Assembly (NCBI GenBank): GCA_964599625.1
Contig: CAZRGC010000003.1
Span: forward strand, 97,759 to 161,758
Source of the DNA: an uncultured Gammaproteobacteria bacterium
GTDB lineage: Bacteria > Patescibacteriota > Microgenomatia > UBA8517
Direction of reading: 5' to 3'
DNA: 64,000 nucleotides
Shown: piece by piece, positions 1-27,217 of the stretch
Numbering within the stretch: position 1 is the first letter of the stretch
Layout: every line of letters starts with the position of its first letter
The notes under the pieces: generated by a model
Told to the model about the DNA's origin: nothing
Database searches by the model: none
Seen by the model: the letters and a program-made list of their open reading frames with translations, nothing else
Program-made: the position numbers and the translations under genes

Positions 1-1
1 G

Positions 2-361
2 GCAGACGCCGAAAAGATAACACTTCTTAAGTTCAATATAATTTACGAGCTTCTCAAAGAGATTGAGGAAATTATGAAAAAAGGAAAAGTGGTAGAAGTC
101 GGAAAGGCGGAGATATTGGCCATATTCCCGTTTGATAATAAAAAAGTTGCAGGCTCCAAAGTCATTTCCGGAAGAATCACCAAGGGTGACCAGATAATAT
201 TAAGACGGGCTGACAAAGATCTTGGTAAGGCAAAAGCAGTTTCTGTAAGAAAGGGGAAGCAAGAGGTGGGGTCGGTAGGACAAAGTGAAGAATTTGGCGT
301 TATTCTTGAACCACAGCTTGATTTTGCTGTAGGTGACGTGTTAGTATCCGTGGCGAAGTAA
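2..361 (+). CDS. infB: translation initiation factor IF-2, C-terminal fragment (gene starts upstream of window)
   Basis: The frame is open from base 2. The C-terminal beta-barrel region (…GKVVEVGKAEILAIF…VISGRITKGD…EEFGVILEPQLDFAVGDVL) matches the IF-2 C2 domain. The infB-rpsO-pnp neighbourhood is conserved. Confidence 0.8.
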   Translation, partial: ADAEKITLLKFNIIYELLKEIEEIMKKGKVVEVGKAEILAIFPFDNKKVAGSKVISGRITKGDQIILRRADKDLGKAKAVSVRKGKQEVGSVGQSEEFGVILEPQLDFAVGDVLVSVAK

Positions 362-379
362 ACCTGCCTCATTTAAGTA

Positions 380-1345
380 ATGGACAATACTCTATCTCAA
401 TTAATTGATTCGTCTTCATCTGTACTTATTATTTTGCCAACAAAACCGTACTTTGATCAGGTTGCTGCGGGGCTTTCGCTTTATTTATCTCTTAGGGATA
501 AGAAAGATGTGGCTATAACATGCCCAAGTCCAATGACAGTCGGATTTAATAGGCTCATAGGGGTTCAAAAGATTGTTTCTGAGGTTGGCAATAAGAATCT
601 AACAATTAGGTTTGCAGGATACGACGCCACAAACATTGAAAAGGTGAGTTATGATATCGAAAACGGTGAATTCAAACTAACTGTGGTTCCCAAGGTCGGT
701 TTCGATTCTCCTCAAAAGGAAAACTTGAACCTGAATTATTCAGGGATGTCTGCTGACCTTGTTATTTTGGTGGGTGGTGCCAACGAGACTCATTTTCCGG
801 TACTAACCTCACCTGATTTTAGTGTAGAAAAAATTGTTCATGTAGGCACAAGAGTTTTAACCACAACCCGTGAAGTCATGTCGCTTTCGAAACCGGGTTC
901 TTCTACCAGTGAAATTGTTGCCAACATAATTAAGACTAACGAGCTTGCAATGGACCCGGATATCGCAACCAATCTCATCATGGGTATAGAAGAGGGCAGC
1001 TCCCACTTTGAGAGTTCCGAAGTTCGTGCGGAAACCTTTGAGACTTTTGCTTTTCTTTTAAGAAATGGAGGAAGGAGAATGCCTAAAAACAAATTAAGTC
1101 CCATGAATTTTCCTCCAGGATCAATTCCCGGAGTACCCGTAGCCCAGCCAGGGATAAGGCTTCCAAAGATGCCACCGATGCCACCTTTGCAGACTCTACC
1201 TTCTTTTGATGAAGTTCTTGCTCCTGACATGGACTCAACCAAAGAGGAAGAATCTGAAATTGACCCCCCTGACGATTGGCTTCAGCCAAAAGTATTCAAA
1301 GGATCCGTTAACCAACCCGAGTCTTTTAGCGAGAACAAGGGTTAA
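380..1345 (+). CDS. DHH/NrnA-like phosphoesterase fold protein with degenerate catalytic motifs and a Pro-rich C-terminal tail
   Basis: The N-terminal pattern VLIILPTKPYFDQVAAGLSLYLSL…DLVILVGGAN resembles DHH motifs I-III of NrnA (IxHxxPDxDAxGS…DxvixvD) but lacks the His/Asp residues. A DHH gene commonly follows infB/rbfA. The C-terminus is PPGSIPGVPVAQPGIRLPKMPPMPP. Confidence 0.35.
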   Translation: MDNTLSQLIDSSSSVLIILPTKPYFDQVAAGLSLYLSLRDKKDVAITCPSPMTVGFNRLIGVQKIVSEVGNKNLTIRFAGYDATNIEKVSYDIENGEFKLTVVPKVGFDSPQKENLNLNYSGMSADLVILVGGANETHFPVLTSPDFSVEKIVHVGTRVLTTTREVMSLSKPGSSTSEIVANIIKTNELAMDPDIATNLIMGIEEGSSHFESSEVRAETFETFAFLLRNGGRRMPKNKLSPMNFPPGSIPGVPVAQPGIRLPKMPPMPPLQTLPSFDEVLAPDMDSTKEEESEIDPPDDWLQPKVFKGSVNQPESFSENKG

Positions 1346-1395
1346 ATTTCCCCATATGGTTTAAAATGAGATTTTCCTGATCACTTATAGATATT

Positions 1396-2013
1396 ATGGA
1401 CAAAAAAAATGACCCCGTAGGACATGGTTACGGAACAGATACCCAGAGAGTTATAGATACTTATGTTTCTAGTAGAGACATTGAAGAGTATAGAAGGAAC
1501 TTGGGTTTCGAAAACAAAGAATCTTTTTTAGCCAATATTCCCCAAGGTGCAGTACTGCTTGATATAGGTTCCGGTAACAATGAATTTTCCAGAAACATGA
1601 TGGATGTAAGACCTGACGTTAAGATATTTAACCTCAACCCCGCTTTGGCGGACAAAACAAATAGACTATTCAGCAAACGTTACAACAATTCCTCGAACGA
1701 TATAGCAGCAATTAATCCAGGGCTTCCTTACAAAGACGCTTCTTTTGATGTTGTTTTGGACTGCATGGCCAGTATTTACCGAGCAGATCCGATTTTTGGT
1801 ATGACGAGAGAGGAATCAAATTTACAAAAATTAAAGGAGGTTGTTAGGGTTCTTAAACCCAATGGCTTTGCAGCAGTGGGCCCCCTCTTGAGAGAAGACG
1901 AGATTGCAGAGTTAGTTGAGAATTCGAGACGCATTGGTGGTATTTCGGTTCAAAAAGCTAAAATTATCGAGCCTAACTTCCAAAGTTTTCATATCCGAAA
2001 ACTACCTCTTTGA
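1396..2013 (+). CDS. class I SAM-dependent methyltransferase
   Basis: Motif I LLDIGSGNN and the post-I acidic residue are present. VLKPNGF is a motif III-like element. Confidence 0.55.
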   Translation: MDKKNDPVGHGYGTDTQRVIDTYVSSRDIEEYRRNLGFENKESFLANIPQGAVLLDIGSGNNEFSRNMMDVRPDVKIFNLNPALADKTNRLFSKRYNNSSNDIAAINPGLPYKDASFDVVLDCMASIYRADPIFGMTREESNLQKLKEVVRVLKPNGFAAVGPLLREDEIAELVENSRRIGGISVQKAKIIEPNFQSFHIRKLPL

Positions 2014-2114
2014 ACTCAGCCTTGAGTTGTGGTAAAATACCCAAGATGAAAACAAGGTTTTCTCTGAAATGAGGCTACTTTGTTTAACATGACGAATAGT
2101 CTTTCAAGACAACT

Positions 2115-2384
2115 ATGGCACTAGCCAAAGATCACAAACAAGACATTATCAAGAAGTTTTCCCGCGAAAAGGGTGATACAGGTTCTCCTGAAGTTCAGGT
2201 TGCGCTTCTTACCATCCAAATTGAAAAACTCGTAGGGCATCTTAAGGAACACAAAAAGGACGTTCATTCCAGACGTGGACTTTTGTCCATGGTTGCCAAA
2301 AGGCGCAGGCTTTTGAACTATCTTAGAAGAAGAGATGAAGAAAGATACAAAAAGCTTATTGAGGAATTGAAATTAGAGAAGTAA
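2115..2384 (+). CDS. rpsO: 30S ribosomal protein S15
   Basis: An 89-aa protein whose sequence …[39 protein letters not shown] is canonical S15. It lies upstream of pnp. Confidence 0.95.
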
Positions 2385-2402
2385 AATACAAACAGTAGGT
2401 TT

Positions 2403-2456
2403 GAGGTTGAAGATGGTGTCCCGCAACGGCGGGACTTCAGAATACAACCTTCAACT
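2403..2456 (+). promoter_or_regulatory. rpsO-pnp intercistronic stem-loop (nested hairpin)
   Basis: The inner perfect hairpin is gtcccgc-aacg-gcgggac (2418-2435). It is enclosed by gttgaag (2406-2412) pairing with cttcaac (2449-2455). The position is analogous to the RNase III-processed pnp leader of model bacteria. Confidence 0.5.
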
Positions 2457-2470
2457 TACCCCAGAATTAC

Positions 2471-4825
2471 ATGAAGAAAATAACAAAATCTTTAGAGCTC
2501 GGAGGAAAAACTCTGACTCTTACCACAGGTGAACTTGCAGAACAGGCAGCGGGTGCAGTTCTCGCTAGAATGGGCGACACAGTCGTATTGGCAACAGTGG
2601 CCGCAGCTCCACTCAAGATGGAAATGGATTATTTTCCACTTACAGTTGAATACCTCGAAAGACTTTATGCCGGTGGACGTATCAAAGGCAGTAAATGGGT
2701 CAAAAAAGAAGGAAGGCCCACAGATGAGGAAATTCTTTCCGCGAGACTTATAGACAGATCCATAAGACCCCTTTTCCCCAAGACCTACAAAAAAGAAGTT
2801 CAGGTGATTGTCACTGTAATGGCTGTGGACATGGAAAATGACCCTGCCATTTTGGGTGCAATCGCGGCTTCGGCAGCTGTTCACGTTTCTACACTTCCCT
2901 GGAAAGGTCCAGTTGCTCCACTTACGGTTGGACTTATAAACGGAGAGTACAAGATTAACCCGTCAAATTCAGAGATGGAAAATTCACTTATGGATCTTAC
3001 AGTTTCTTCGACAAAAGAGGCTGTTCTCATGATCGAGGCAGGAGCCAAAGAAGTAACAGAAGAGCAAATTGTGGGAGGAGTTGAATTTGCACAGAAAGAA
3101 TCTAAAGCGGTTTTGGCTTTTATTGAAGAACTTGCAAAAGAGGCAGGTAGGGACAGAGAAACATATGTTCCCGAAAAACCTTCTGCTGAACTTGAAAAAC
3201 AAGTAGAAAAACTGGTTGGAGACAAAATTGCGGGTGTTGTTGAAAGCTTGGTTAGTGTAGAAAACGGAAGATCTACAGAGCTTCAGGATTTGATTGACGC
3301 AGTTGTTGCAAATGTTACGGAGGAAGATGCTAAATGGGTTCCTGAGATTGTTGACCATATGAAGAAAGATTATATTCGTAGTCAGATTCTCAAAAAAGGA
3401 AAAAGACCAGACGGCAGGAAACTCACGGAAGTCAGAAAACTTTCTGGTGAGGTTGGCTATTTACCCAGAGTTCACGGTTCGGCTTTGTTCAAAAGAGGGC
3501 AGACACATGTCTTGTCTGTAGCTACGCTTGGTGCTCAGTCAATGGGACTCCTTTTGGAATCTGCAGAAGGCGAAGTCGAAAAAAGATATATGCACCAATA
3601 TTCCATGCCTCCTTATGCCAGCGGTGAGGTTGGAAGATTTGGTAACGCAGGAAGACGCGAAATTGGACACGGTGCTCTCGCAGAACGTGCACTTACACCG
3701 GTAATTCCTTCTCAGGATGAGTTCCCTTACACAATAAGAGTGGTATCAGAAGTTATGAGTTCAAATGGTTCGACTTCAATGGCTTCTGTTGTTGGTTCTA
3801 CATTGTCACTCATGGATGCAGGTGTACCCATAAAAGCTCCTGTTGCAGGTATTGCAATGGGTCTCATTATCGAAAACGAAAAAGAATTTGCGGTTCTTTC
3901 GGATATCATGGGCATCGAGGACTTCAACGGTGATATGGATTTCAAAGTGGCAGGCACCGATAACGGAATTACAGCACTTCAGCTTGATGTTAAGACCCTA
4001 AACCTTACCAAAGAAATTCTGGAGAAAGCACTTGAACAGTCCAAGGATGCAAGGTCCCAAGTGATGAAAGCCATCAAGGACACTTTGGCTGAACCCAGAA
4101 CTACAGTCTCGGAATATGCACCCAAGATTAAAGTGGTTAAGATTCCAGTTGAGAAGATTGGGGAATTTATAGGCCCAAGCGGAAAGAATATCAAAAAGCT
4201 TATGGCTGACACAGGGTGTCAGGTGGACGTTGAAGACGATGGAAGTGTTGCTATATCTGGAGTTGACCCGGACAAGATGCAGCAGGCGGTTGCATTTGTA
4301 GAAGGTTTTGCAAAAGTCGTGCAACCTGGAGAAATTTATGAAGGTGAAGTCGTGAGACTTATGTCATTCGGGGCATTTGTAAATATTTTGCCCGGCAAAG
4401 ACGGCATGGTGCATGTTTCAGACATGGGCCAGGAGGGATTTGTTAAAGATGCAGGAGATGTTGTAAGCATTGGACAAAAAGTTCAAGTTAGAGTTAAAGA
4501 AGTTGACGATATGGGAAGAATCAATCTTTCTATGAATATGGATCCTGCAATGGATGAAAAGATCAAAGCTGAAAGACAAGCAAAGTTTGGTGACAGAGGC
4601 GGCAGAGGTGGCGGACGAGGTGGATTTGGCGGAGGTCGCGGCGGATTTGGAGGCGGCAGAGGTGGCGGACGAGGTGGATTTGGCGGAGGTCGCGGCGGAT
4701 TTGGAGGCGGCAGAGGAAGAAGTTTTGACAGAGCCGATAGGGGTGCAAGTGGGGGACCACATTTTCCTGCATCCAGATTAATGGGTGACAATAATTCTTC
4801 GGGTGGCAACGACTTCGGAAGATAA
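2471..4825 (+). CDS. pnp: polynucleotide phosphorylase with C-terminal RGG/Gly-Arg-rich extension
   Basis: Two RNase PH domains (…RPDGRKL…GSALFKRGQT…; …FNGDMDFKVAGT…), a KH domain and an S1 domain are all present. An extra ~90 aa follows: GDRGGRGGGRGGFGGGRGGFGGGRGGGRGGFGGGRGGFGGGRGRSFDRADRG. Confidence 0.95.
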   Translation: MKKITKSLELGGKTLTLTTGELAEQAAGAVLARMGDTVVLATVAAAPLKMEMDYFPLTVEYLERLYAGGRIKGSKWVKKEGRPTDEEILSARLIDRSIRPLFPKTYKKEVQVIVTVMAVDMENDPAILGAIAASAAVHVSTLPWKGPVAPLTVGLINGEYKINPSNSEMENSLMDLTVSSTKEAVLMIEAGAKEVTEEQIVGGVEFAQKESKAVLAFIEELAKEAGRDRETYVPEKPSAELEKQVEKLVGDKIAGVVESLVSVENGRSTELQDLIDAVVANVTEEDAKWVPEIVDHMKKDYIRSQILKKGKRPDGRKLTEVRKLSGEVGYLPRVHGSALFKRGQTHVLSVATLGAQSMGLLLESAEGEVEKRYMHQYSMPPYASGEVGRFGNAGRREIGHGALAERALTPVIPSQDEFPYTIRVVSEVMSSNGSTSMASVVGSTLSLMDAGVPIKAPVAGIAMGLIIENEKEFAVLSDIMGIEDFNGDMDFKVAGTDNGITALQLDVKTLNLTKEILEKALEQSKDARSQVMKAIKDTLAEPRTTVSEYAPKIKVVKIPVEKIGEFIGPSGKNIKKLMADTGCQVDVEDDGSVAISGVDPDKMQQAVAFVEGFAKVVQPGEIYEGEVVRLMSFGAFVNILPGKDGMVHVSDMGQEGFVKDAGDVVSIGQKVQVRVKEVDDMGRINLSMNMDPAMDEKIKAERQAKFGDRGGRGGGRGGFGGGRGGFGGGRGGGRGGFGGGRGGFGGGRGRSFDRADRGASGGPHFPASRLMGDNNSSGGNDFGR
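4598..4714 (+). repeat. perfect 54-nt tandem duplication (2 copies plus 9-nt partial third) inside the pnp 3' coding region
   Basis: Bases 4598-4651 are identical to 4652-4705 (ggcggcagaggtggcggacgaggtggatttggcggaggtcgcggcggatttgga). The unit is in frame and encodes GGRGGGRGGFGGGRGGFG twice. Confidence 0.9.
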
Positions 4826-4846
4826 TCTTCATTGCCTAAGATTTAG

Positions 4847-5929
4847 GTGATACACTGGAAAGGAATTTTTTTTAAATTTGTTATGGATACTGCCGCACAA
4901 GAAATAAACGTACTTATAGAAAAAGTTAAGGCCTCGGATATGCCCGACAAACTTCGTGAGAGAGTGATGGTAAGACTTAGTCAGTTGGCAAAACTTACAA
5001 ATTCCCCATCTTTTTTGCCAGAATTCGACAGCATGGTCAAATATATTGATTGGATAACAATTCTTCCTTGGAACAAAAGAACTAAAGATGTTTTGGATCT
5101 AGCTAACGCCGCAAAAATTTTGGAAGAACATCATTACGGATTGGCCGAGCTAAAAGAGAGAGTTTTGGAGTACATGAGTGTTATGAAACTTAAAACAGAG
5201 CGCGGAGAAAGTGCAGACATATATAGGGCCCCAATTCTTTGTTTTGTGGGACTTGTTGGTACAGGAAAGACAACGATCGCATATTCTATTGCCGAAGCTT
5301 TGGGACGCCCCATTGCCCGTATTCCTTTTGGAGGAATGGGAGACCCGCTTGATCTTCGTGGACAGTCTCGTATGCACCCCGAAGCAGAGCCGGGGAAGAT
5401 TATTAAAGCACTAAGAGACTGTCAGTCCAAAAATCCTGTCATACTTTTGGATGAAATCGACCGTGTCACAGAACAGGGTAGGGCTTCAATAATGGGTGTT
5501 TTGGTTGAGCTTTTGGACCCTAAACAGAATAAAGCTTTTACTGACCACTATTTAGATTTTCCAGTGGATTTATCCGAAGCATTGTTTATTGCGACAGCAA
5601 ACAACACAACCAATATAGCAACTGCTGTTATGGACAGAATCGAACCAATTTCCATGCCTTCATACTCAGATCAAGAAAAAATAGTAATTGCCAAAAAATA
5701 TATTCTGCCGCACGCGCTTAAAGCGTCAGGGCTTCCCGAGGGGTCTTTAACTATAGACGACGAAGTTTGGATTAATATTGTCCGTCCTTTGGGATTTGAT
5801 GCAGGTATCCGTACATTGGAAAGAAATATAGACGGCGTTGTGAGGAAAGTTGCAAGGTTAATGGTGGAAGGAAAAGCACAAACAGTAAGTGTTACCCCCC
5901 AGAACGTTAAACAATTCATGCCACAGTAA
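4847..5929 (+). CDS. Lon-like AAA+ ATPase module without LAN N-domain and without S16 protease domain
   Basis: The sequence is collinear with the Lon helical linker plus AAA+ module. It has YIDWITILPWNKRT, HYGLAELKERVLEY, Walker A GLVGTGKTT, Walker B ILLDEID, DPKQNKAFTDHYLDFPVDLS and AGIRTLER. The protein ends where the Lon protease domain would begin. The true start may be M4883 (MDTAAQ…). Confidence 0.8.
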   Translation: MIHWKGIFFKFVMDTAAQEINVLIEKVKASDMPDKLRERVMVRLSQLAKLTNSPSFLPEFDSMVKYIDWITILPWNKRTKDVLDLANAAKILEEHHYGLAELKERVLEYMSVMKLKTERGESADIYRAPILCFVGLVGTGKTTIAYSIAEALGRPIARIPFGGMGDPLDLRGQSRMHPEAEPGKIIKALRDCQSKNPVILLDEIDRVTEQGRASIMGVLVELLDPKQNKAFTDHYLDFPVDLSEALFIATANNTTNIATAVMDRIEPISMPSYSDQEKIVIAKKYILPHALKASGLPEGSLTIDDEVWINIVRPLGFDAGIRTLERNIDGVVRKVARLMVEGKAQTVSVTPQNVKQFMPQ

Positions 5930-5992
5930 TGTCACAAGAAAGCTATGCCGCAGTAACTCACTAAGTCTGCGACATAAAATTTACAAGCTATT

Positions 5993-6559
5993 TTGTTGTG
6001 TATAATGTTTGAAATGGCAGAGGTTGGATACAATGTTTACGCACAAGAACGAAGATATATAGAAACCCGTGTTGCTGAGATTACATTGGTGGAGCATATA
6101 GCAACAATGTATAAATCCATTCAAGACAATGTTACTACGGGTTGGCATTCTGTAAACAATACTCAAAACCAAATTCTGGACATATTGGCAAACGATTACA
6201 ATTCATGGCAATCGTTTCCTGAGCACCAAAATAAAGCAGGTTTGGACAGGGGCGCTCACGGTGAATACTTTATGAGACTGATTGGAGCCGGAATATTGGA
6301 GGATTTACCTCACAGATTTTTGTCAGAAGATGGAAAAGACATTTCGGGCGTAGAAATTCTCGCCACTCCTTCAGGAGACGACGGTGTAGGTATATTTGAT
6401 GTGACTTTTAAAATAGAATCAGGCAAAAAGAATGAATTTGGAAGGGTTAGAGTAAACGCAAGTATGCAATCACTTAGAGCTAGGATGAAAGATTTGTCCG
6501 AAGAGATGCGAATTTATAACGAAAGAATAAATGAAGGTAGGGGCGATTGGCAAAAATGA
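5993..6559 (+). CDS. hypothetical protein
   Basis: Supported only as an ORF with coding-like composition. No motif was recognised, and no Lon S16 protease motif (PKDGPSAG) is present. The start may be M6017. Confidence 0.35.
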   Translation: MLCIMFEMAEVGYNVYAQERRYIETRVAEITLVEHIATMYKSIQDNVTTGWHSVNNTQNQILDILANDYNSWQSFPEHQNKAGLDRGAHGEYFMRLIGAGILEDLPHRFLSEDGKDISGVEILATPSGDDGVGIFDVTFKIESGKKNEFGRVRVNASMQSLRARMKDLSEEMRIYNERINEGRGDWQK

Positions 6560-7032
6560 AAATATTAGTCATTTCTGACTCTCATGGACAAATTTCCAAC
6601 CTTGAACATATCTTGGGTTTTGCAAAAAAGATAGGCGCCGGGGCACTTATTCACTGTGGAGATTGGGATAATTTATCTTCCGTAGAAAAAGTTTTGGAGT
6701 CACAAATTCCGCTTTATTCAGTTTCTGGAAATGCCGATGTCGACCCCAGTATTAAAAAAAGACTAGAAGAAGGATCGGAAAAATATGGAGAAAACTTTCT
6801 GTATTTTGAGTTGGAAGGAAAAAAAATCGGAGTGACCCACAAACCTAAAGATGTTAAAAAATATTTTGAAAATAGTGGGGCAGATATAGTTTTTTGTGGA
6901 CATTTACACTCTGTAGACGACAATTTTGTTTCCGGAATCCGAGTTGTCAGACCCGGAGCGGTAAAATCAGGAATAAATATTGTTGTTTATGAAACAAAAA
7001 ATGGAGACCTAGAATTTATAAAAGATGAATGA
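6547..7032 (+). CDS. metallophosphoesterase, YfcE/MJ0936 family
   Basis: It has the calcineurin-like motifs ISDSHG, HCGDW, GNAD and GHLH, and a size of 161 aa. Confidence 0.8.
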   Translation: MAKMKILVISDSHGQISNLEHILGFAKKIGAGALIHCGDWDNLSSVEKVLESQIPLYSVSGNADVDPSIKKRLEEGSEKYGENFLYFELEGKKIGVTHKPKDVKKYFENSGADIVFCGHLHSVDDNFVSGIRVVRPGAVKSGINIVVYETKNGDLEFIKDE

Positions 7033-7615
7033 AAGTATAATTCACGAAAAATACAAAAAACTCCACGAGTTAAAAGACAAAATGGAAAAGGACGAATCTT
7101 TACCTTTGAAAAAGGGTGCCACCCGCCTTGTTTTTGGAACCGGTAACACAGAAGCAAAGATTTTATGTATTGGGGAAGGGCCGGGCTTTAATGAGGACCG
7201 AGAAGGTCTGCCTTTTGTGGGACAAGCAGGGAGGTTGTTGGATAAACTTTTACATCTTGCAGGCATCGAGCGCAAGACGGTATTTATAACAAACGTTGTT
7301 CATCACAGACCCCCTGAGAACCGTGACCCGTTGCCAGAAGAAATATCCGCTTACGGAAAATACCTGGACGAAATAATAAAAATAATAAATCCTAAAATGA
7401 TTATTACACTTGGAAGGTTTTCAATGGCAAAGTTTTTACCTGATGTATTTATTTCTCAGGTGCATGGTAAAAATTACAAAGTTGATTTTGGAGGCAGAAC
7501 AGTAACTATTGTGCCAATGTATCATCCCGCAGCAAGTTTGAGGAACGGCAATATTTTAGAAGCAGAAAAAAAAGATTTTTTAGAACTCGGAAAAATATTG
7601 CGGGATTTTAATTAA
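7025..7615 (+). CDS. uracil-DNA glycosylase, family 4-like
   Basis: Motif A GEGPG is followed by FVGQAGRLLD, and the C-terminal motif is HPAASLR. Confidence 0.75.
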   Translation: MNESIIHEKYKKLHELKDKMEKDESLPLKKGATRLVFGTGNTEAKILCIGEGPGFNEDREGLPFVGQAGRLLDKLLHLAGIERKTVFITNVVHHRPPENRDPLPEEISAYGKYLDEIIKIINPKMIITLGRFSMAKFLPDVFISQVHGKNYKVDFGGRTVTIVPMYHPAASLRNGNILEAEKKDFLELGKILRDFN

Positions 7616-7649
7616 ACCGATTATTGGGTACAATATAGATACTTCGAAA

Positions 7650-9377
7650 ATGAAAACATCTTCGCAAAGCAAAAACATGAATGAAAAAAATATAAAAACC
7701 AATCCCTCGATAATGACAACAAAAGTTACAGGTGGAATGAAATTTATAGCACTTTCGGGAACAACAGGTGTTACAGAGAATCTTTATGTATATGAATACG
7801 GTAACGACATGGTTGTTGTTGACTGTGGTGTCGGGTTTCCCGAATCTGAAATGTTTGGGGTGGACCTGGTTATACCTGATTTTTCTTATATAAAACAAAA
7901 CGCCCACAAATTAAGAGGTGTTCTTATTTCTCATGGACACGAAGACCACATTGGAGGTTTACCTTTCCTGCTAAAGGAAGTAAAAACCACAGTGTATGCC
8001 AGTAAACTTGTTGCCGGTTTTATTCAGGAGAAACTTGATGATGCAGAGGTCCAGGGGAATATTAAAGTCTTTGACCCCGAACGTGATGTTTTGACACTTG
8101 GAGTTTTTAAAGTTACACCTTTCAGAGTTGCCCACTCGGTTCCCGATGGGGTTGGTTTTTGTATCGACACACCCGAAGGAAAAATGTTCCATGTGCCGGA
8201 TTACAAATTTGATTGGACACCTGTAGATGGTAGGCCGTTTGACGTCGCAAAACTTTCTGTTCTGGCATCTGGTGGTGCATTGGCCTTGGCATCGGATTCT
8301 CTGGGGTCTACTTCACCTGGATACACTGAAAGCGAGAGAGAGATAGAAGGCAGAATTGAACCTATTGTGCGGGACGCCAAAGGTAAGGTGTACCTGACCA
8401 CTATCTCGTCAAATATAAGTCGTATGCAGCAAACTCTTAATGTCGCAGCAAAAACAGGAAGAAAAGTATGTTTCATTGGCAGATCTATCGTCAGAAAGTC
8501 CGAAATAGCCAGAGATCTGGGTTTTATGTCGCAGGGGAACGGAATAATTGTTCAACCCAAACAAGCCGCCAAACTTCCACCCAATAAAGTTCTTTATATT
8601 ATTTCAGGTAGTTACGGTCAACCCGGAAGTGCACTATACAGGCTTTGTCTGGGCGACCACGACTTCTTGTCTATTGGCAGTAATGACGTGGTTATATTTT
8701 CGGCAGATCCTGCTCCTCCAGGCAGTAAGGCAAATGTTGATTTTTTGGTAGACAAATTAATCGAGTCTGATGTGGATGTGCATTATTACGACATGCAGGA
8801 AGATCTTCATGTTTCGGGACATGGATGTATCAAAGACATCGAAATGCTTTTTGCTTTAGTTAGACCAAAGTATTTTATACCAATTGGTGGAACAGTAAGA
8901 CACAATAGAGCATATGGACTTATTGCTCAAAGTATGGGTGCCGAAGAAAAAGAAATCCTTGCACTTTTGCCTGGCGACATTGTTGAGTTTAATTCTGGAA
9001 TAGCCAGAAGGTCCGGAAAAATTCAGGTTAAAGAGGTGCTGGTTGACGGATTAGGCATTGGAGATGTTGGCAATTCGGTATTAAGGGATAGACACATCCT
9101 TTCTAAAGAGGGAGTTGTTATTGCAATGTGCCAATTTGATCGCAACAACGGTGTTCTTTCCGCACTCCCCGAAATGATAAGCCGAGGTTTTGTTTTTGAA
9201 CAAAAATATGGCCGGCTTTTGGATGAAGCGTCACGGGACCTTGCAAAGGTCCTGGATAGAAAAAAGAATGTTAACGCGCTTTTTATACGAAACACTACGA
9301 TTGATTTTCTCGAAAAATATTTCTTCCAAAAAACAGGCAGGCGCCCAATGATACTTCCGTTGGTTGTGGAGACTTGA
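7650..9377 (+). CDS. rnj: ribonuclease J (metallo-beta-lactamase/beta-CASP)
   Basis: It carries HGHEDHIGG, the beta-CASP region and a C-terminal domain. The N-terminal ~25 aa are a probable overcall, and the start is more likely M7713 or M7738. Confidence 0.85.
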   Translation: MKTSSQSKNMNEKNIKTNPSIMTTKVTGGMKFIALSGTTGVTENLYVYEYGNDMVVVDCGVGFPESEMFGVDLVIPDFSYIKQNAHKLRGVLISHGHEDHIGGLPFLLKEVKTTVYASKLVAGFIQEKLDDAEVQGNIKVFDPERDVLTLGVFKVTPFRVAHSVPDGVGFCIDTPEGKMFHVPDYKFDWTPVDGRPFDVAKLSVLASGGALALASDSLGSTSPGYTESEREIEGRIEPIVRDAKGKVYLTTISSNISRMQQTLNVAAKTGRKVCFIGRSIVRKSEIARDLGFMSQGNGIIVQPKQAAKLPPNKVLYIISGSYGQPGSALYRLCLGDHDFLSIGSNDVVIFSADPAPPGSKANVDFLVDKLIESDVDVHYYDMQEDLHVSGHGCIKDIEMLFALVRPKYFIPIGGTVRHNRAYGLIAQSMGAEEKEILALLPGDIVEFNSGIARRSGKIQVKEVLVDGLGIGDVGNSVLRDRHILSKEGVVIAMCQFDRNNGVLSALPEMISRGFVFEQKYGRLLDEASRDLAKVLDRKKNVNALFIRNTTIDFLEKYFFQKTGRRPMILPLVVET

Positions 9378-9456
9378 CGTTAATGTTGCAGGCTTGAAGC
9401 TTCCAAGATCTTTTTGTAAAGTATACAATGCATTTGCGTAGTGAAATCAAAATAAA

Positions 9457-11592
9457 ATGAAGCAAAGAAAAAGAATAACAAAACGGGGTTTCAAATTAAA
9501 ACTTAAGAAGGAAACTACTTTTTCTATTGCTCAGATTTTTTTCTTTATTTTTTCTGCTCTTATTTTGGTCTCTTTTTCAAAACAGGGCGCAATTCTTCGG
9601 GGTTTTAATGACTTTTTAACAAATTATTTTGGATGGTCTGCTGTGTTTTTGCCATTTATAACCCTGTCGTTTGCGTTTCTGGTGTCCAAAATTAAATTTC
9701 CTTTGGGTCAACCCAATGTTGTTGTCGGCGGACTTCTTTTTTTTGTTTCTGTGATGGCTTTGGGTAAGGCGGGGGCTTTGGGAGTGGGCTCCTGGGAGAT
9801 GATTGCCAGTTTGATATCTGGGTTTGGGGCTGGATTGGTTTTTTTCTGCTCGGCCTTTATTGGGTTAATAGTTCTTTTTAACACTTCAGTAGATGTTGTT
9901 TTTAAATATTTACAGGGACTTTTCAAGACAGCAAAAGGATATGTAAAAAGCGATACACAATTTAAAGTTAGCGGTTCCGGCATTAGTAAACCCTTAAGCA
10001 CGGGTCCTTTGAAAGTTGTTGGTGGTGGCGCTTCCCCAGCCATTAATTCGAATACTACGGTTACTCCTACAAAAACTACTGTACCCGCAGCCGTTCCTCA
10101 TGCTGCGCTTGAACAAAAGTTGGTGAGCAATGTTCCAGGCGAAGAGATGATTTGGAAATATCCGTCGGTAAATCTTCTTAGTGAAACGGACAATGGTAAA
10201 GCAGAGCGAGGAGATATCAAAGGCAACGCTGATACTATCGAGAAAACCCTGGACTCTTTTGGAATATCTGCGCGTGTTGTGGAAGTAAACCTTGGCCCTG
10301 CTGTCACACAGTATGCCCTAGAGGTGGCACTTGGAACCAAGCTTTCCAAAATAACCTCACTCGAACGTGATTTGGCATTGGCACTTTCCGCACCAACAGG
10401 AACTATAAGAATAGAGGCTCCAATTCCTGGGCGTAATTTAGTGGGAATTGAGCTTCCAAACCGATCTGCCGAGTTTGTGAGTCTAAGAAAAATGATGTCT
10501 TCTGATGAAATGCTGGGTCATAAATCTAAGCTCGCGGTTGCATTGGGTTTTGATGTTTCGGGTAAGCCTATTGTTGCAGATGTTGCCAGAATGCCCCATG
10601 TGCTTATTGCAGGACAAACAGGATCCGGAAAGTCTGTTTGTATAAACACTTTCCTTGCATCAATTCTTTTCAGAGCAGCACCAACCGAAGTAAAAATGAT
10701 ATTGGTTGACCCTAAGCGAGTAGAAATGACTGGTTACAATGGAATTCCCCATTTGTTGACCCCTGTTATAGTTGAGCCGGATAAAGTCATAAACGCTCTT
10801 AATTGGGTAATGGGGGAAATGGATAGAAGATACAAACAATTTGCCGAAGCAGGCGCCAGAAACATTGAGGCTTATAACGAGATGTCCGGTTTTCAAGCCC
10901 TGCCTTATATAGTTGTAGTTATCGACGAACTTGCTGATATTATGCTTTTTTCACCTGTTCAAGTTGAGGACGCCATTACCAGGATTGCACAAATGAGCCG
11001 TGCAACCGGGATACACATGGTCCTGGCAACTCAAAGGCCGTCTGTGGATGTCATTACCGGACTCATTAAAGCAAATGTACCAAGCAGGATTGCATTTGCC
11101 GTGTCGTCCCAAATTGACTCTCGTGTTATTTTGGATACACAAGGAGCAGAAAAGCTTTTGGGTAAAGGTGATATGCTTTATCTACCTCCGGAACAAGCTA
11201 AGCCGTTGAGAATTCAAGGGGCTTTCGTGAATGACAAAGAAATAAACGCTTTGGTATCGTTTATTAAAAATCAGGGAATTGAGCCGCACTACACCGAAGG
11301 TGTCACAACAAGTGTTAAGCCGGGCACTGTTGTAGTTCCGGGAGTTGAAGGAGGGGTTGATGATATGTTCAAAGAAGCGGTAAGGGTGGTGTGTCAATTT
11401 GATCGAGCAAGCGCGTCACTTTTGCAAAGAAAACTTTCAATTGGTTATTCAAGGGCAGCAAGAGTTATAGATCAGTTGGAAGCTGCGGGGGTGGTGGGCC
11501 CCTCTGATGGAACAAGTAAACCCAGAGAAGTATTGGTGCAAAATGCGGAAGAATTCCTTGCCTCATTCGGTGCTCAGCCAGCCCAAGGTTAG
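9457..11592 (+). CDS. ftsK: DNA translocase FtsK/SpoIIIE
   Basis: It has N-terminal TM helices, Walker A AGQTGSGKS, Walker B VVVIDELAD, ATQRPS, and a C-terminal gamma winged helix (LLQRKLSIGYSRAARVIDQLE). Confidence 0.9.
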   Translation: MKQRKRITKRGFKLKLKKETTFSIAQIFFFIFSALILVSFSKQGAILRGFNDFLTNYFGWSAVFLPFITLSFAFLVSKIKFPLGQPNVVVGGLLFFVSVMALGKAGALGVGSWEMIASLISGFGAGLVFFCSAFIGLIVLFNTSVDVVFKYLQGLFKTAKGYVKSDTQFKVSGSGISKPLSTGPLKVVGGGASPAINSNTTVTPTKTTVPAAVPHAALEQKLVSNVPGEEMIWKYPSVNLLSETDNGKAERGDIKGNADTIEKTLDSFGISARVVEVNLGPAVTQYALEVALGTKLSKITSLERDLALALSAPTGTIRIEAPIPGRNLVGIELPNRSAEFVSLRKMMSSDEMLGHKSKLAVALGFDVSGKPIVADVARMPHVLIAGQTGSGKSVCINTFLASILFRAAPTEVKMILVDPKRVEMTGYNGIPHLLTPVIVEPDKVINALNWVMGEMDRRYKQFAEAGARNIEAYNEMSGFQALPYIVVVIDELADIMLFSPVQVEDAITRIAQMSRATGIHMVLATQRPSVDVITGLIKANVPSRIAFAVSSQIDSRVILDTQGAEKLLGKGDMLYLPPEQAKPLRIQGAFVNDKEINALVSFIKNQGIEPHYTEGVTTSVKPGTVVVPGVEGGVDDMFKEAVRVVCQFDRASASLLQRKLSIGYSRAARVIDQLEAAGVVGPSDGTSKPREVLVQNAEEFLASFGAQPAQG

Positions 11593-11673
11593 TGTAATAA
11601 TATAAAATTCCGTTAGGAGATGTTAGGCGATTCGAAGAATCTCCAAAGATGAATTTTATATAAAACAAATTTT

Positions 11674-12303
11674 ATGAAAACAATTGGACAGATACTCAAA
11701 AATGCCCGTGTTGAAAAAAAACTTTCAATTGCTGATCTGGAAGACACCACAAAGATCAAGGAATCTTTTCTAAGATCGATCGAAAATGAAAACTGGTCGT
11801 CACTTCCCGCATTCCCAGTGGTACTGGGTTTTGTAAAGAGCATATCAGGTGTGTTGCATTTAAACGAAAACACAACGGTGGCAATTCTTAAAAGGGACTA
11901 CCCACCCAAGAAACTGACAATAAATCCAAGTCCGGATATTTCTGATAAAAAAATGGTGTGGGGTCCAAAGACGACTTTTTTTGCCGGTGTTTTTTTTGTG
12001 GTTCTTTTTGTTGTTGGGTATTTGGGTTACCAATACTACAAATTTGTTTCTCCACCAATGATAAGACTGGAAAGTCCCAAGGAGAATCAAATGATTTCAG
12101 GGAGTTCTGTTCTCGTGTTTGGTTCAACAGATACAGACGCCAAAATAACTGTAAACAACCAACCTGTTTTGGTTGATGACGGGGGTAAGTTCAAAGTAGA
12201 TCTTGGAGTGAGCAAAGCGACTCAGGAAGTTGTTGTGAAGGCCACGTCCCGTACTGGCAAAGAGAGTGTAGTTTCGCGTAAAATAAACGTAAGTCAAAAC
12301 TGA
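11674..12303 (+). CDS. RodZ-like HTH (XRE) membrane protein
   Basis: The N-terminal HTH (IGQILKNARVEKKLSIADLEDTTKIKESFLRSIENENWSSLP…FVKSI) matches the RodZ signature. A single TM helix and a periplasmic C-domain follow. Confidence 0.55.
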   Translation: MKTIGQILKNARVEKKLSIADLEDTTKIKESFLRSIENENWSSLPAFPVVLGFVKSISGVLHLNENTTVAILKRDYPPKKLTINPSPDISDKKMVWGPKTTFFAGVFFVVLFVVGYLGYQYYKFVSPPMIRLESPKENQMISGSSVLVFGSTDTDAKITVNNQPVLVDDGGKFKVDLGVSKATQEVVVKATSRTGKESVVSRKINVSQN

Positions 12304-12306
12304 TAT

Positions 12307-12540
12307 ATGGACTCTGTTCAAACACTTTTAGTGATCGTAGTGATAAGCCTGACGTTGCTTTTGATGGTTGTGGGTGTTCAAGTGATGCTTATAATTTTTG
12401 ATCTTAGAAAGGCAATCAAAAGACTCAATAGTATTTTGGAAGACTCAATTTTGGGTGGAGGACTTATACGACCCGAAAAGCTGACTTCAGTTATGGAGAT
12501 CCTCAGGAAAAACAAGAAAATTGAGACTCACGGAGGATAG
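12307..12540 (+). CDS. small membrane protein, hypothetical
   Basis: A 77-aa ORF with one strongly hydrophobic helix. Confidence 0.3.
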   Translation: MDSVQTLLVIVVISLTLLLMVVGVQVMLIIFDLRKAIKRLNSILEDSILGGGLIRPEKLTSVMEILRKNKKIETHGG

Positions 12541-12582
12541 GAGTATAATCTATAGGATAGTTTTCGTTTAGAGGAGTGAACC

Positions 12583-12936
12583 TTGAACATAAGATTACCC
12601 TACTGGATTACAGGGATTGCCTGGATCCTTATATTTATCTACCTGGGATACAACAACATCAACTACCTTTCCGGGCGCCCTAACACATATTTTGGCGGTG
12701 TCGAGGCCATGATTCTCGTCATGGGTGGTGTTGGTCTTGTTTTTTCGGTCTTTCAATTTAAGTATGGGCTTTTGGGAGTTGGCATCCTGATGCTGGTGTT
12801 CGCTGTATGTGGCGGGCTTGCGACAATTATCACATCGGTGAACCTGGAATACATGGTGCAGTATTTGAAAGGTTTGTCCTTTCTGGCTCACACCTCCCTT
12901 CCCAATTTTGTGGTTCTTTTTGACAAAGAAAGTTAA
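12583..12936 (+). CDS. membrane protein, hypothetical
   Basis: 117 aa with about three predicted TM helices. A clear terminator follows. Confidence 0.35.
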   Translation: MNIRLPYWITGIAWILIFIYLGYNNINYLSGRPNTYFGGVEAMILVMGGVGLVFSVFQFKYGLLGVGILMLVFAVCGGLATIITSVNLEYMVQYLKGLSFLAHTSLPNFVVLFDKES

Positions 12937-12941
12937 GGCCT

Positions 12942-12979
12942 AACCGCGACGACAAAAAACCGTCGCGGTTATTTTTTTT
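12942..12979 (+). terminator. rho-independent terminator
   Basis: The stem aaccgcgacg/cgtcgcggtt is followed by an 8-T run. Confidence 0.8.
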
Positions 12980-12985
12980 GACCAA

Positions 12986-14815
12986 ATGCGATATACTTTA
13001 CGCATGACGACGAAGGAAATAAGAGAAAAATATTTAGAATTTTATAAAAAACAAAACCATAAGATTATTGCTCCATCTCCGTTGGTTTTGGAAAACGACC
13101 CAACAACGCTGTTTACTTCGTCCGGAATGCAACAAATGATCCCCTACTTAAAAGGTGAGACGCATCCTCTGGGAAAAAGACTTGTTGATTCGCAGCCGTC
13201 ACTCAGGCTGCAAGATTTGGAAGAAGTTGGAGATAATCGTCATACGACTTTTTTTGAAATGCTTGGTAATTGGAGTTTGGGTGATTACTTTAAAGACGAA
13301 CAACTCAATTGGATCTGGCAGTTTTTTACAAAGGAGCTTGGGCTTAATCCCGACAGACTTTACGTGTCATGTTTTGCCGGAAACGAGAGTGTTGCAAAAG
13401 ATGAGGAATCATACGAAATTTGGAAAAAAATTGGTGTTCCCGAAAATCACATTCATTTTTATGATGCCAAAAAAAACTGGTGGAGCAGAGCAGGTGGGCC
13501 CGACCAAATGCCTGCTGGTGAAGTGGGTGGACCAGATAGTGAAGTCTTTTTTGAATTTGAGAATGTGTCCCACAACCCAGAATTTGGCAAATTTTGTCAT
13601 CCGAACTGCGACTGTGGAAAATTCATGGAGATTGCCAACTCAGTTTTTATGCAGTTTAAAAAAGAGAGTAGCGGGAGTTTGAGCGAGCTGCCTCAGAAGA
13701 ATGTCGACTTTGGGGGAGGTCTCGAAAGAATCTCGGCTGCTTTAAACAATGATCCTGATATTTTTAAAATAGACATTTTTGACTCAATTGTTAAGAAGAT
13801 TGAAAAAGAAGTTGGTGCAGAGTACGGAACTGACGAAAAGAAGACAAAGAGTTTCAGGGTTATAGCGGATCATCTTCGTGCTTCCTGCAATCTTCTTTCG
13901 GAGGGCGTCATTCCTTCCAACAAGCTCCAAGGTTATGTGCTTAGGCGTTTGGTTAGACGGGCGATGTTTCACTTTCACTTGTTGGGAAGCGGAATTTCTG
14001 GGAGTGCAGTCTCATCCATCGCTGAAAGCCTTAGAAATGAGTATCCAATTATCGATAAAAACTGGCAAGTTGTATCAGAAAACTTGACTATAGAGGCAAC
14101 AAAGTTTGAATCTGCTCTCAAACGGGGTCTTGCCAAATTGACTAAGGGGGTTTCCGGTGGCAAAAACATTGACGGTAAGTTTGCATTTGACTTGTATCAA
14201 ACAGAGGGTTTTCCTCTTGAGCTTACGCTTGAGATTTTGACTCAAAACGGAATGCAGTTTAGTGACAACGAGAAGAATAATTTTGCATCGGAATTTGAAA
14301 AACATAAAGAAAACTCAAGAACAACAAGTGCCGGAATGTTTAAAGGTGGTTTGGAAAGTAAGAGCGATGAGACAATCACCAAGTTGCATACTGCGACACA
14401 TCTTTTGCATGCATCGCTGAGAAAGGTATTGGGAGAACATGTTTCCCAAAAAGGAAGCCATATTACGAAAGAAAGATTGAGATTTGATTTTTCTCACCAA
14501 TCTAAACTTACTCAAGAACAGATAAAAGAAATTGAAAATCTTATAAACGAACAAATTAAAAAAGATTTACCTGTGTCTTTTGAGATGAAAACTCTTGATG
14601 AGGCGATTACAGAAGGCGCTTTGCATTTTTTTGCGGAGAGATATGGGAGTGAGGTTAAAGTCTATACGATTGGTGACCCTAAGGGTGATTATTTTTCTAA
14701 AGAAATATGTGGCGGTCCCCATGTTGCCCACACTGGCGAGGTTGGTAATATTAGTATAATAAAGCAAGAGAGCATTGGTTCAGGAACAATTAGGATTTAT
14801 GCGTCTATAACCTGA
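12986..14815 (+). CDS. alaS: alanine--tRNA ligase, short form lacking C-Ala domain
   Basis: FEMLGNWSLGDYFK marks the class II AlaRS core. The editing domain motifs HTATHLLH and CGGPHV are present. The protein ends after the editing domain at 609 aa. The start is possibly M13004. Confidence 0.85.
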   Translation: MRYTLRMTTKEIREKYLEFYKKQNHKIIAPSPLVLENDPTTLFTSSGMQQMIPYLKGETHPLGKRLVDSQPSLRLQDLEEVGDNRHTTFFEMLGNWSLGDYFKDEQLNWIWQFFTKELGLNPDRLYVSCFAGNESVAKDEESYEIWKKIGVPENHIHFYDAKKNWWSRAGGPDQMPAGEVGGPDSEVFFEFENVSHNPEFGKFCHPNCDCGKFMEIANSVFMQFKKESSGSLSELPQKNVDFGGGLERISAALNNDPDIFKIDIFDSIVKKIEKEVGAEYGTDEKKTKSFRVIADHLRASCNLLSEGVIPSNKLQGYVLRRLVRRAMFHFHLLGSGISGSAVSSIAESLRNEYPIIDKNWQVVSENLTIEATKFESALKRGLAKLTKGVSGGKNIDGKFAFDLYQTEGFPLELTLEILTQNGMQFSDNEKNNFASEFEKHKENSRTTSAGMFKGGLESKSDETITKLHTATHLLHASLRKVLGEHVSQKGSHITKERLRFDFSHQSKLTQEQIKEIENLINEQIKKDLPVSFEMKTLDEAITEGALHFFAERYGSEVKVYTIGDPKGDYFSKEICGGPHVAHTGEVGNISIIKQESIGSGTIRIYASIT

Positions 14816-14878
14816 TATTATATAGTCATATTAAAACAAGATATCAGTTTTGTTTTGCTATAAATAGCTGCCCAAAAG

Positions 14879-17107: not shown

Positions 17108-17145
17108 CACTTAACTTCATCCAAATAATTGTTTATATTTGTGAG

Positions 17146-17826
17146 ATGGATCAACGTACAGTTCTTAGAATATCGGCAATAATCTCAGGTATATCAGGGG
17201 TAATAATACTGGTTGGAGTTTTTTATCCAATAATTTCATACAATTCATCAAAAACCATACCACTCGTTGCACCCGTAACCGAAGAAAATTCCGGTAACCC
17301 TGTTGTTGAAGGTTATCAAACCACACAAAGTTTGGACTACACCCAGGCCAGCAATTGGTTTCAGGGTGGTAATGTTACCAAGAGTGACTTTATTTCTTCG
17401 AAAATTGAATACTACACAATAACCATCCCCAAACTGAAAATTGACTCTGCAACTGTGGCAATTGGTGGAGAGGATTTAAGCAGCCACCTTATACAGTATC
17501 CCGGAACCGCCGTACCGGGAAAAAGGGGAAACTCAGCGATTTTTGGACATTCTATTTTGCCAATTTTTTACAACCCCAAAAATTATCTTGCAATATTTTC
17601 ACTTCTGCCAACCCTTAAGAAAGGTGACGAGATTTTCATCAACTACGACGGTATAGCCTACACTTATAAGGTTGAGTCCATGTTTGAAGTTCTTCCAACA
17701 GACATTCAAGTTCTTGACCAGGATTCCTCTGACTCATTTTTGACACTTGTCACATGCGTACCTCCGGGAGACCCAGGACAACCAAGGAGGCTTGTTGTTA
17801 GGGCAAGAGTTGTTCCGCCTACTTAA
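17146..17826 (+). CDS. sortase family transpeptidase
   Basis: It has an N-terminal TM anchor, a catalytic His context AIFGHS, the Cys motif TLVTC, and a conserved Arg (RLVVRAR). Confidence 0.8.
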   Translation: MDQRTVLRISAIISGISGVIILVGVFYPIISYNSSKTIPLVAPVTEENSGNPVVEGYQTTQSLDYTQASNWFQGGNVTKSDFISSKIEYYTITIPKLKIDSATVAIGGEDLSSHLIQYPGTAVPGKRGNSAIFGHSILPIFYNPKNYLAIFSLLPTLKKGDEIFINYDGIAYTYKVESMFEVLPTDIQVLDQDSSDSFLTLVTCVPPGDPGQPRRLVVRARVVPPT

Positions 17827-18219
17827 ATGAAAATCATCGGAATAGATTACGGAAGAAAAAAAATAGGAGTGGCACTTTCTATAAACGGATTTGTGGAGCC
17901 AATCAAGGTGTTGCATCTTTCCAACTACCAAGATGGTTTGCAAAAAATAAGAAGCGTGGTTGAATCCGAGAGTCCAGAAAAGATTGTCGTGGGTGTTTCT
18001 GAGGGCGAAATGGGCCTTGAGATAGAAGATTTTGCTGATGACTTGGCAGAAATGCTCAGTCCAACTCAGATTGAACTTTTTGATGAGACCCTCTCTACAA
18101 AAGATGCTAACTTTATTGCCAGGGAATCTGGTGTCGGACGTAAAAAGCTAAAAGAGATGGAAGATGCCTATGCGGCTACGATAATGCTCCAAAACTATTT
18201 AGACTCAAGCGTCTCGTAG
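17827..18219 (+). CDS. ruvX: Holliday-junction resolvase-like RuvX/YqgF
   Basis: The N-terminus is IIGIDYGRKKIGVALS and the size is 130 aa. It is adjacent to mltG, as in many bacteria. Confidence 0.8.
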   Translation: MKIIGIDYGRKKIGVALSINGFVEPIKVLHLSNYQDGLQKIRSVVESESPEKIVVGVSEGEMGLEIEDFADDLAEMLSPTQIELFDETLSTKDANFIARESGVGRKKLKEMEDAYAATIMLQNYLDSSVS

Positions 18220-18273
18220 TTTGCCAATTCTTGGCTGGTCCTAAAAAAGATAGTTTGGATTTGTCGAAAAAGG

Positions 18274-18507
18274 TTGACACGCCAGCCTTCGTGTTATACT
18301 TTTATTACACAAATGTTTAAAACAGTTATAGCACCAATACAGGCTTGGTTGATGAGTCAAGGAAGATGTGTGGGTTGTGGAACTGAACTTTCGGAAGGAA
18401 CAACCAAAAGTACAAGATTTGGTGAACAGGTTACCTGCAAAAAATGCGGTAGGATTTTTATCAAGAAAGACGGAAAATACCGCAGGGCCCTTCTTGAAGA
18501 GGTTTGA
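18274..18507 (+). CDS. small zinc-ribbon protein, hypothetical
   Basis: Two CxxC pairs are present (CVGCG…CKKCG). The start is possibly M18316. Confidence 0.35.
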   Translation: MTRQPSCYTFITQMFKTVIAPIQAWLMSQGRCVGCGTELSEGTTKSTRFGEQVTCKKCGRIFIKKDGKYRRALLEEV

Positions 18508-18515
18508 TTTTTTAA

Positions 18516-19487: not shown

Positions 19488-19500
19488 TCTATATTACCTG

Positions 19501-27215: not shown

Positions 27216-27217
27216 AT

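Follow-up and report, generated by a model that had tools for sequence, protein, structure and literature searches.

The 64,000-nt stretch of contig CAZRGC010000003.1 analysed here (the window) contains a pnp gene whose product, polyribonucleotide nucleotidyltransferase (PNPase), continues for about 95 residues beyond its S1 domain. This C-terminal tail is conserved across a large Microgenomates lineage, evolves under purifying selection and is predicted to be disordered. It is probably a functional two-part module, in which a basic, RNA-capturing tether carries a short peptide, GPHFPxSR[L/F/Y], that would dock in trans. The initial annotation, made from the sequence alone, had described an RGG-type extension containing a duplicated 54-nt unit and overlooked this tip, the most conserved element of the tail.

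The gene and the parts of its product are located in the window as follows:

2471..4825, plus strand: pnp (polyribonucleotide nucleotidyltransferase), an uninterrupted open reading frame (ORF) of 784 aa including the tail, with the stop codon at 4823-4825 (Pfam, NCBIfam)
2486..4537, plus strand: PNPase catalytic and RNA-binding core, aa 6-689, with two RNase PH domains, the alpha domain, KH and S1
4544..4585, plus strand: short predicted helix after S1 at the start of the linker, aa 692-705, MDEKIKAERQAKFG (DSSP on both AlphaFold2 models)
4589..4750, plus strand: predicted-disordered Arg/Gly-rich linker, aa 707-760 (translation, predicted local distance difference test (pLDDT), composition)
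4596..4716, plus strand: perfect in-frame tandem array, with units at 4598-4651 and 4652-4705 plus an 11-nt partial third copy (Tandem Repeats Finder (TRF), exact-match search, codon table)
4751..4780, plus strand: tip motif GGPHFPASRL, aa 761-770 (alignments, tails of relatives)
4781..4822, plus strand: C-terminal 14 residues beyond the tip, MGDNNSSGGNDFGR (comparison with tails of relatives)

By all sequence tests, the window protein is a bona fide PNPase, for which phosphorolytic 3'-5' exoribonuclease activity is predicted. Its Pfam domains, arranged in the canonical order, are RNase_PH (twice), RNase_PH_C, PNPase, KH_1 and S1, the last of which extends to aa 688. Among NCBIfam models, the PNPase equivalog PRK11824 (NF008805) scored 879.9 bits against a cut-off of 471 and covered aa 6-689, and TIGR03591 scored 868.5 bits against a cut-off of 525. 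The best PDB matches were PNPases (E ~1e-188), and an identical protein (P0001) is present in a public collection. Core motifs RREIGHG, SSNGSTS and GDMDFK were conserved across an alignment of 150 sequences with cores 54-93% identical to the window protein. Residues R395, R396, N432, G433, S434, S436, D488, D490 and K492 were invariant in the same alignment; by analogy with E. coli PNPase, we take these to be the phosphate- and metal-binding active-site residues of the second RNase PH domain. AlphaFold2 modelled the core with confidence, the mean pLDDT of the whole chain being 84.7 with the 150-sequence alignment.

Canonical bacterial PNPases (E. coli, Caulobacter crescentus, Streptomyces antibioticus and mycobacterial; 4AM3, 3CDI, 7OGK, 1E3H, 7LD5) share the domain order of the window protein. 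However, the solved bacterial enzymes end no more than ~25 residues past S1, with alignments stopping at query residues 688-701, whereas the window protein adds 95 aa in the same uninterrupted frame, as initially annotated. Human mitochondrial PNPase gave one low-complexity alignment extension, to query residue 736. Two AlphaFold2 monomer runs, from 107- and 150-sequence alignments, placed a helix directly after S1 (H692-706 in one model, H692-705 in the other). Residues 707-784, tip included, had pLDDT values of 30-37 in both runs, and the tip was not docked on its own chain. The tail matched no Pfam or NCBIfam family and had no homology to RNase E.

The RGG character of the tail was confirmed: it contains 7 RGG and 9 RG motifs and 42% Gly, with repeated RGG and RGGF units. 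The RGG motifs are spaced by 0-4 residues (sequence RGGRGGGRGGFGGGRGGFGGGRGGGRGGFGGGRGGF) and class the tail as Tri-RGG (at least three RGG), RGG/RG regions being defined after Thandapani et al. 2013 as cited in PMC9312465. TRF reported the array at 4596..4716 with a period of 54 nt, 2.2 copies, 100% matches and a score of 242, and it was the sole tandem array with a score of at least 80 in the window. Both TRF and exact-match search recovered the two identical units described initially; the partial third copy, given as 9 nt, is 11 nt long (4706-4716). Every unit comprises 18 codons in frame and encodes GGRGGGRGGFGGGRGGFG. When the window was shuffled 100 times with its dinucleotide composition preserved, the unit was never matched. 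The antisense ORFs that overlie the array (4418..4832, minus strand) were rejected as by-products of GGN/CGN codon runs.

The tip follows the consensus [G/A]-P-H-F-P-[T/A]-S-R-[L/F/Y]-hydrophobic, continues for ~8 residues and lies ~15 residues from the C-terminus; in relatives, the protein usually ends in KKDF[N/G/S/D]R or KKRF/KRRF after it. Its P, H, F, P and R residues were invariant in both the 107- and the 150-sequence alignments, matching catalytic-core residues in this respect. Among the best 120 homologues (71-100% identity, 763-814 aa), tail and tip were present in all save one truncated entry, in the order short charged segment, variable Arg/Gly/Ser/Phe-rich stretch, GGPHFP[T/A]SRL and short C-terminal segment. 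With a Blackburnbacteria PNPase as query, 119 of 120 matches carried the motif, the lone exception being truncated. When the most divergent tip variant (P0168) was used, the new sequences again carried it, two of them as PHHFP. PHFP was located no more than 30 aa from the C-terminus in 262 of 267 full-length relatives, and 2 others had PHHFP. In metagenome contigs, the motif was found in 68 of 69 complete tails, at identities down to 51%.

The specificity of the tip was assessed at the DNA and protein levels. A degenerate DNA pattern for GGPHFP[T/A]SR[L/F] was scanned against 185,579 genomes, one per GTDB species, and gave 61 matches, against ~9 chance matches expected from the information content of the pattern by our own calculation. 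Fifty-nine matches were at the 3' end of pnp, all in metagenome-assembled genomes (MAGs) of Woesebacteria, Blackburnbacteria, Microgenomates or the 'Patescibacteria group', and a second match was absent from every assembly. The other two, in Chryseobacterium lathyri (L055, 6434..6462) and an Omnitrophota MAG (L040), fell in ORFs of 69 and 20 aa unrelated to pnp and were dismissed as chance. With a 32-position profile of the tip, 8 matches were obtained among 1.84 billion representative proteins. Seven were C-terminal pieces of PNPase, five of them with a recognisable S1-end sequence; the eighth (P0126) was a spurious repeat protein. No credible non-PNPase carrier was found in either search. 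Thus the tip appears specific to PNPase, yet rare over bacterial PNPase diversity as a whole. The profile had no meaningful PDB match, and no description of the motif or of such a PNPase tail was found in the searchable literature; GPHFPxSRL is therefore a peptide motif apparently undescribed.

The linker that precedes the tip was considerably more variable. A predicted-disordered, Arg-rich, net-positive linker of 19-97 aa was present in nearly all complete relatives sampled (51-100% identical). The carriers included Woesebacteria and Blackburnbacteria, both in the Microgenomates group of Patescibacteria, and other Microgenomates. Among 153 unique tails, the linker measured 33-95 aa and contained 13-29% Arg (standard deviation 3%) and a median of 3% Lys, and the net charge was always between +3 and +12; Gly made up 4-43%, and there were 0-10 RGG motifs. 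Across all relatives, Gly content spanned 0-43% and RGG count 0-10, while Arg content and positive net charge persisted. Linkers of the window's sub-clade had a median Gly fraction of 0.35, 5 RGG and 74 aa, compared to 0.18, 1 RGG and 44 aa (range 19-97) in more distant members, which are rich in Arg, Glu, Asp and Pro. Gly thus differed between sub-clades, but positive charge did not.

Since Gly content and RGG count vary among relatives, RGG is not the conserved property. The comparison suggests that the selected properties are Arg-borne positive charge, flexibility and the tip, and that the 'RGG box' is a local form only. A survey of related pnp genes for RG-rich tails, as proposed initially, thus shows an Arg-rich positive tail to be clade-wide, but not RGG or Gly richness.

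Purifying selection acts on the tail as strongly as on the catalytic core. Between the window and its closest relative (L001/L016, 92% amino acid identity), the ratio of nonsynonymous to synonymous substitution rates (dN/dS, Nei-Gojobori, calculated with L001) was 0.028 for the core, where dS was saturated, 0.043 for the whole tail, 0.069 for the RGG array and 0.053 for the tip. Synonymous divergence in the tail was ~1. This abundant synonymous change argues against a constraint at the DNA or RNA level, and a whole-window Rfam search at gathering thresholds returned no family.

The same relative provides a record of the repeat. L001 encodes the same two 18-aa units, with DNA copies reported as 88% identical and 10 differences counted over 54 nt. 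By the same count, the two window copies differ at 0 positions, window copy 1 and L001 copy 1 at 7, and window copy 1 and L001 copy 2 at 15. Inside the shared units, differences are nearly all synonymous, both between the L001 copies and between the genomes; replacements occur at the array end, where L001 has FQRGR and the window FGGGRGR. Because the closest relative holds the same units with diverged DNA copies, the two-unit array is older than the split of the window and L001 genomes. The perfect 54-nt identity reflects recent homogenisation in which copy 1 overwrote copy 2, via gene conversion or via loss and re-duplication. The 'very recent duplication' of the initial annotation was therefore half right: the identity is recent, the array is not.

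Of 58 related tails, 15 contain tandem arrays; the repeat periods lie between 12 and 54 nt and are always divisible by 3, and the identity is 60-100%. Tail lengths and repeat structures also vary among the closest homologues (P0001-P0010), a polymorphism in length only. In-frame slippage and duplication is the general mode of linker evolution, one that alters length and cannot switch the gene off. Phase variation in the ON/OFF sense, raised initially together with slippage, was rejected since the 54-nt unit is 18 codons in frame and the periods of related arrays are all multiples of 3; the accompanying idea that tail length can vary was upheld. The pnp tail of another relative (L048, CAYSOV010000001.1) is a second example of a young repeat: a 30-nt unit in 2.6 copies with 97% identity, encoding GSPRSRFGEA three times within a Gly-poor linker.

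Taken together, these results point to a tail of two parts. According to established PNPase structures, a tail that exits at S1 emerges on the RNA-entry face of the trimer. From there, the flexible, Arg-rich, net-positive linker would most likely act as a non-specific RNA-capturing tether, raising the affinity and reach of the enzyme for its substrate through RNA capture and retention. Its length and sequence would shift rapidly by in-frame tandem duplication and contraction, and in the window's sub-lineage it takes the RGG/RGGF form. The second part is the invariant motif GPHFPxSR[L/F/Y], a short linear peptide that most likely binds a different macromolecule in trans; each trimer would present three tethered docking peptides. 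An invariant peptide of 8-10 residues at the end of a fast-evolving linker has the signature of a short linear docking motif. Docking in trans is favoured because the tip is undocked on its own chain in the models and absent from other proteins. A role of the tail in RNA binding or scaffolding, proposed in the initial annotation, is a reasonable suggestion, now supported by clade-wide conservation and purifying selection.

Several points weigh against this proposal. What the data show is the tail itself, its conservation, the purifying selection on it, its predicted disorder and the history of the repeat; that it binds RNA, docks in trans or has a given partner is what we infer. RGG-specific functions, such as G-quadruplex recognition, are unsupported as a selected property because Gly content and RGG count are unconserved. 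Low pLDDT is only a proxy for disorder, and the monomer model is compatible with docking of the tip on the neighbouring subunit of the PNPase trimer. The library searched with the tip profile, clustered at 50% identity, collapses PNPases to few representatives and may likewise hide non-PNPase carriers. In addition, every seed used (the Blackburnbacteria PNPase, P0168 and the metagenome contigs) still returned tip carriers, so that the phylogenetic limit of the module lies beyond the sequences sampled.

One alternative is an autoregulatory tail. Its tip would fold onto the enzyme, whether at the S1/KH entry, at the RNase PH core or on an adjacent subunit of the trimer, and gate RNA access, with the linker competing for RNA or handing it over. 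Such a tail would resemble the C-terminal tip of Hfq, to which regulation of the Hfq core is attributed. The occurrence of the tip on PNPase alone fits a binding site on PNPase, and the tail departs from S1 beside the RNA entry pore. However, neither AlphaFold2 monomer run docked the tip on its own chain, at pLDDT 30-37, and we consider autoregulation possible but unlikely.

Other alternatives involve neighbouring genes and further RNA-decay enzymes of the window:

2115..2384, plus strand: rpsO (ribosomal protein S15), an 89-aa ORF directly upstream of pnp (L001 counterpart matches PF00312 Ribosomal_S15; tblastn finds it upstream of pnp in related loci)
4847..5929, plus strand: stand-alone Lon-type AAA+ ATPase module, 348-360 aa, with a likelier start at the ATG at 4884 (Pfam AAA, Lon_lid)
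7650..9377: RNase J
60863..62026, plus strand: RNase Y, 387 aa, starting MSKQDEYIEKLAKV

The arrangement rpsO-pnp is the usual one. The order orf321, rpsO, pnp, Lon-type AAA+, (Metallophos), UDG, RNase J, FtsK was common to most related loci fetched, even at PNPase core identities of 56-60%. The Lon-type protein lacks the N-terminal and protease domains; TIGR00763 (lon) covers it only at model positions 253-573 of 795, with a score below the cut-off. Its gene starts 21-58 nt past pnp and lies downstream of pnp in most related loci; the two genes adjoin directly in many of these, and insertions of 1-4 kb stand between them in the rest. It is 52-96% identical among related loci and in some is more conserved than PNPase (70% versus 56% in L013). 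No terminator-like site or convincing promoter was found between the two genes. The Lon-type AAA+ protein is thus a possible co-transcript with pnp and a candidate partner only.

RNase J and RNase Y were confirmed in the window, and no RNase E was seen among the window ORFs scanned, in agreement with the initial annotation. The window RNase Y has no hydrophobic membrane anchor and retains little of the N-terminal coiled coil: ahead of the KH and HD domains, just the final 63 positions of the RNase_Y_N model (137-199 of 201) are matched. RNase Y of B. subtilis, by comparison, has 529 aa, a transmembrane segment and a long coiled coil. Its N-terminal domain is thought to contact degradosome partners (PMC9775385). 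The short window enzyme is compatible with a shift of scaffolding to PNPase, as a single observation.

These features bear on a second alternative, in which the three RGG-type tails of a trimer would phase-separate with RNA and the tip would recruit RNase J, RNase Y, a helicase or the Lon-type AAA+ protein, replacing the scaffolding by RNase E or full-length RNase Y. The Arg/Gly/aromatic composition resembles that of condensate-forming CsdA tails and of the yeast Dbp2 RGG tail, which was the sole PDB match to the whole window tail (E = 0.23, a compositional likeness without significant homology). The truncated, unanchored RNase Y and the widely conserved order pnp, Lon-AAA, UDG, RNase J are also consistent with it. 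In contrast, many relatives have short (19-45 aa), Gly-poor linkers with 0-1 RGG, which are poor candidates for phase separation, and the synteny involves housekeeping genes and is broken by 1-4 kb insertions in many loci. Such a condensate or degradosome hub is conceivable yet doubtful. The same low likelihood applies to its more general form, in which RNA decay in this Microgenomates lineage would be organised around PNPase rather than an endonuclease, with the tip recruiting RNase J, the truncated RNase Y, an RNA helicase or the Lon-type AAA+ ATPase. If true, a new docking motif would underlie a degradosome or condensate that does not depend on RNase E. A further alternative is that the tail serves as a handle for the neighbouring Lon-type AAA+ protein.

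Creation of the second 54-nt unit by the assembler is highly improbable. Perfect repeats are prone to mis-assembly; however, the whole array is 121 nt and within reach of single sequencing reads, and the L001-type two-unit array with diverged DNA copies was recovered from two sources, a Logan contig and an NCBI MAG contig. The closest relative shares the two-unit protein, and two units are therefore the ancestral state. Least likely of all is neutral low-complexity expansion, with slippage-made junk tolerated at the terminus: the repeat-prone DNA (the perfect array here and those in the 15 related tails) and the 19-97 aa range of linker length fit it, but the tail dN/dS of 0.04-0.07 at synonymous divergence ~1, a net charge positive throughout and a tip invariant although cores have diverged to 51-56% identity do not, and the synonymous divergence of the relatives excludes contaminant copies of one sequence. 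For the module, both explanations are effectively excluded, an artefact being formally possible for the exact copy number only.

Several further observations were made on the locus and the window. The gene upstream of rpsO-pnp, orf321 (380..1345, plus strand, 321 aa), has no Pfam or NCBIfam match and is clade-conserved, occupying this position in most related loci at 34-83% identity. Between the Lon-AAA and Metallophos genes, a 188-aa ORF (5993..6559, plus strand) had no family match and no tblastn counterpart in L001-L064, and looks like a lineage-specific insertion into the conserved gene order. The ORFs 14879..17107, 33867..35015 and 55955..56998 (all plus strand; 742, 382 and 347 aa) had no Pfam match at E <= 1e-5. 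ARAGORN predicted a tRNA-Pro (GGG) at 57181..57253 (plus strand); Rfam at gathering thresholds returned not even this tRNA. Nearly all long ORFs of the window (1..64000) are on the plus strand, including rpoB/rpoC-sized genes, a ribosomal protein cluster, recA and rny. Over the initial 10 kb, the cumulative GC skew climbs steadily, which would fit one leading-strand replichore segment.

The closest named relatives of the window PNPase are Patescibacteria, Microgenomates or Woesebacteria. Many MAGs titled 'uncultured Gammaproteobacteria bacterium' (L004, L009, L015, L016, L018 and others; binchicken and SRP co-assemblies) carry a Microgenomates-type pnp locus with the same synteny, and L041, with the same locus type, is titled Alphaproteobacteria. 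These proteobacterial labels appear wrong.

Among known systems, SSB and Hfq combine a folded nucleic-acid-binding oligomer, a variable disordered linker and a short, highly conserved C-terminal tip. The PNPase tail has the same layout, but the SSB and Hfq tips are acidic, their linkers are not Arg-rich and the sequences are unrelated. Eukaryotic RGG/GAR domains (fibrillarin, nucleolin, FUS) share with the window tail RGG/RGGF repeats, a spacing of 0-4 residues and predicted disorder, whereas the window tail shows convergent composition in a bacterial housekeeping gene and the module of relatives has few or no RGG. A eukaryotic origin was rejected, as the tail lies inside a vertically conserved bacterial gene with relatives carrying non-RGG linkers.

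The C-terminal scaffold of RNase E is disordered and contains Arg-rich RNA-binding segments and short conserved docking microdomains (PMC4435900, PMC9775385). Similarly, the window-type tail has a disordered, Arg-rich linker (13-29% Arg) and one invariant microdomain. It differs in being attached to an exonuclease instead of an endonuclease, in its length (~100 versus ~500 aa) and in having one microdomain instead of several; no membrane-targeting segment was seen in the PNPase tail. It may thus be regarded as a miniature analogue of the RNase E scaffold in layout, not a homologue. Arg-rich disordered tails in bacteria, ascribed initially mainly to RNase E, have also been described for the DEAD-box helicase CsdA, where Arg/Gly-rich tails promote condensation (bioRxiv 10.64898/2026.09.17.752289). 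DEAD-box helicase tails (E. coli CsdA/DeaD, the CshA group, yeast Dbp2) are likewise C-terminal Arg/Gly-rich low-complexity regions on RNA-remodelling enzymes; however, the host enzyme is different, and a GPHFPxSRL ending is not reported for them.

A well-known enzyme thus appears to carry an undescribed, clade-wide and selected C-terminal module. To our knowledge, PNPase acts as a client in the systems examined to date, docking on the disordered scaffolds of RNase E or RNase Y, and almost nothing is known experimentally about RNA decay in Patescibacteria. Here, in a large uncultured lineage with very small genomes, it is PNPase that bears a disordered Arg-rich region and a docking-type peptide. 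In its present form, the finding does not overturn a paradigm. The 10-residue peptide and the deletable tail nevertheless offer a concrete, testable handle on the organisation of RNA decay in Patescibacteria, and the naturally varied linkers, RGG-rich at one extreme and Gly-poor at the other, 19-97 aa long and joined to a constant tip, could be used to test what basic disordered tethers give a ribonuclease.

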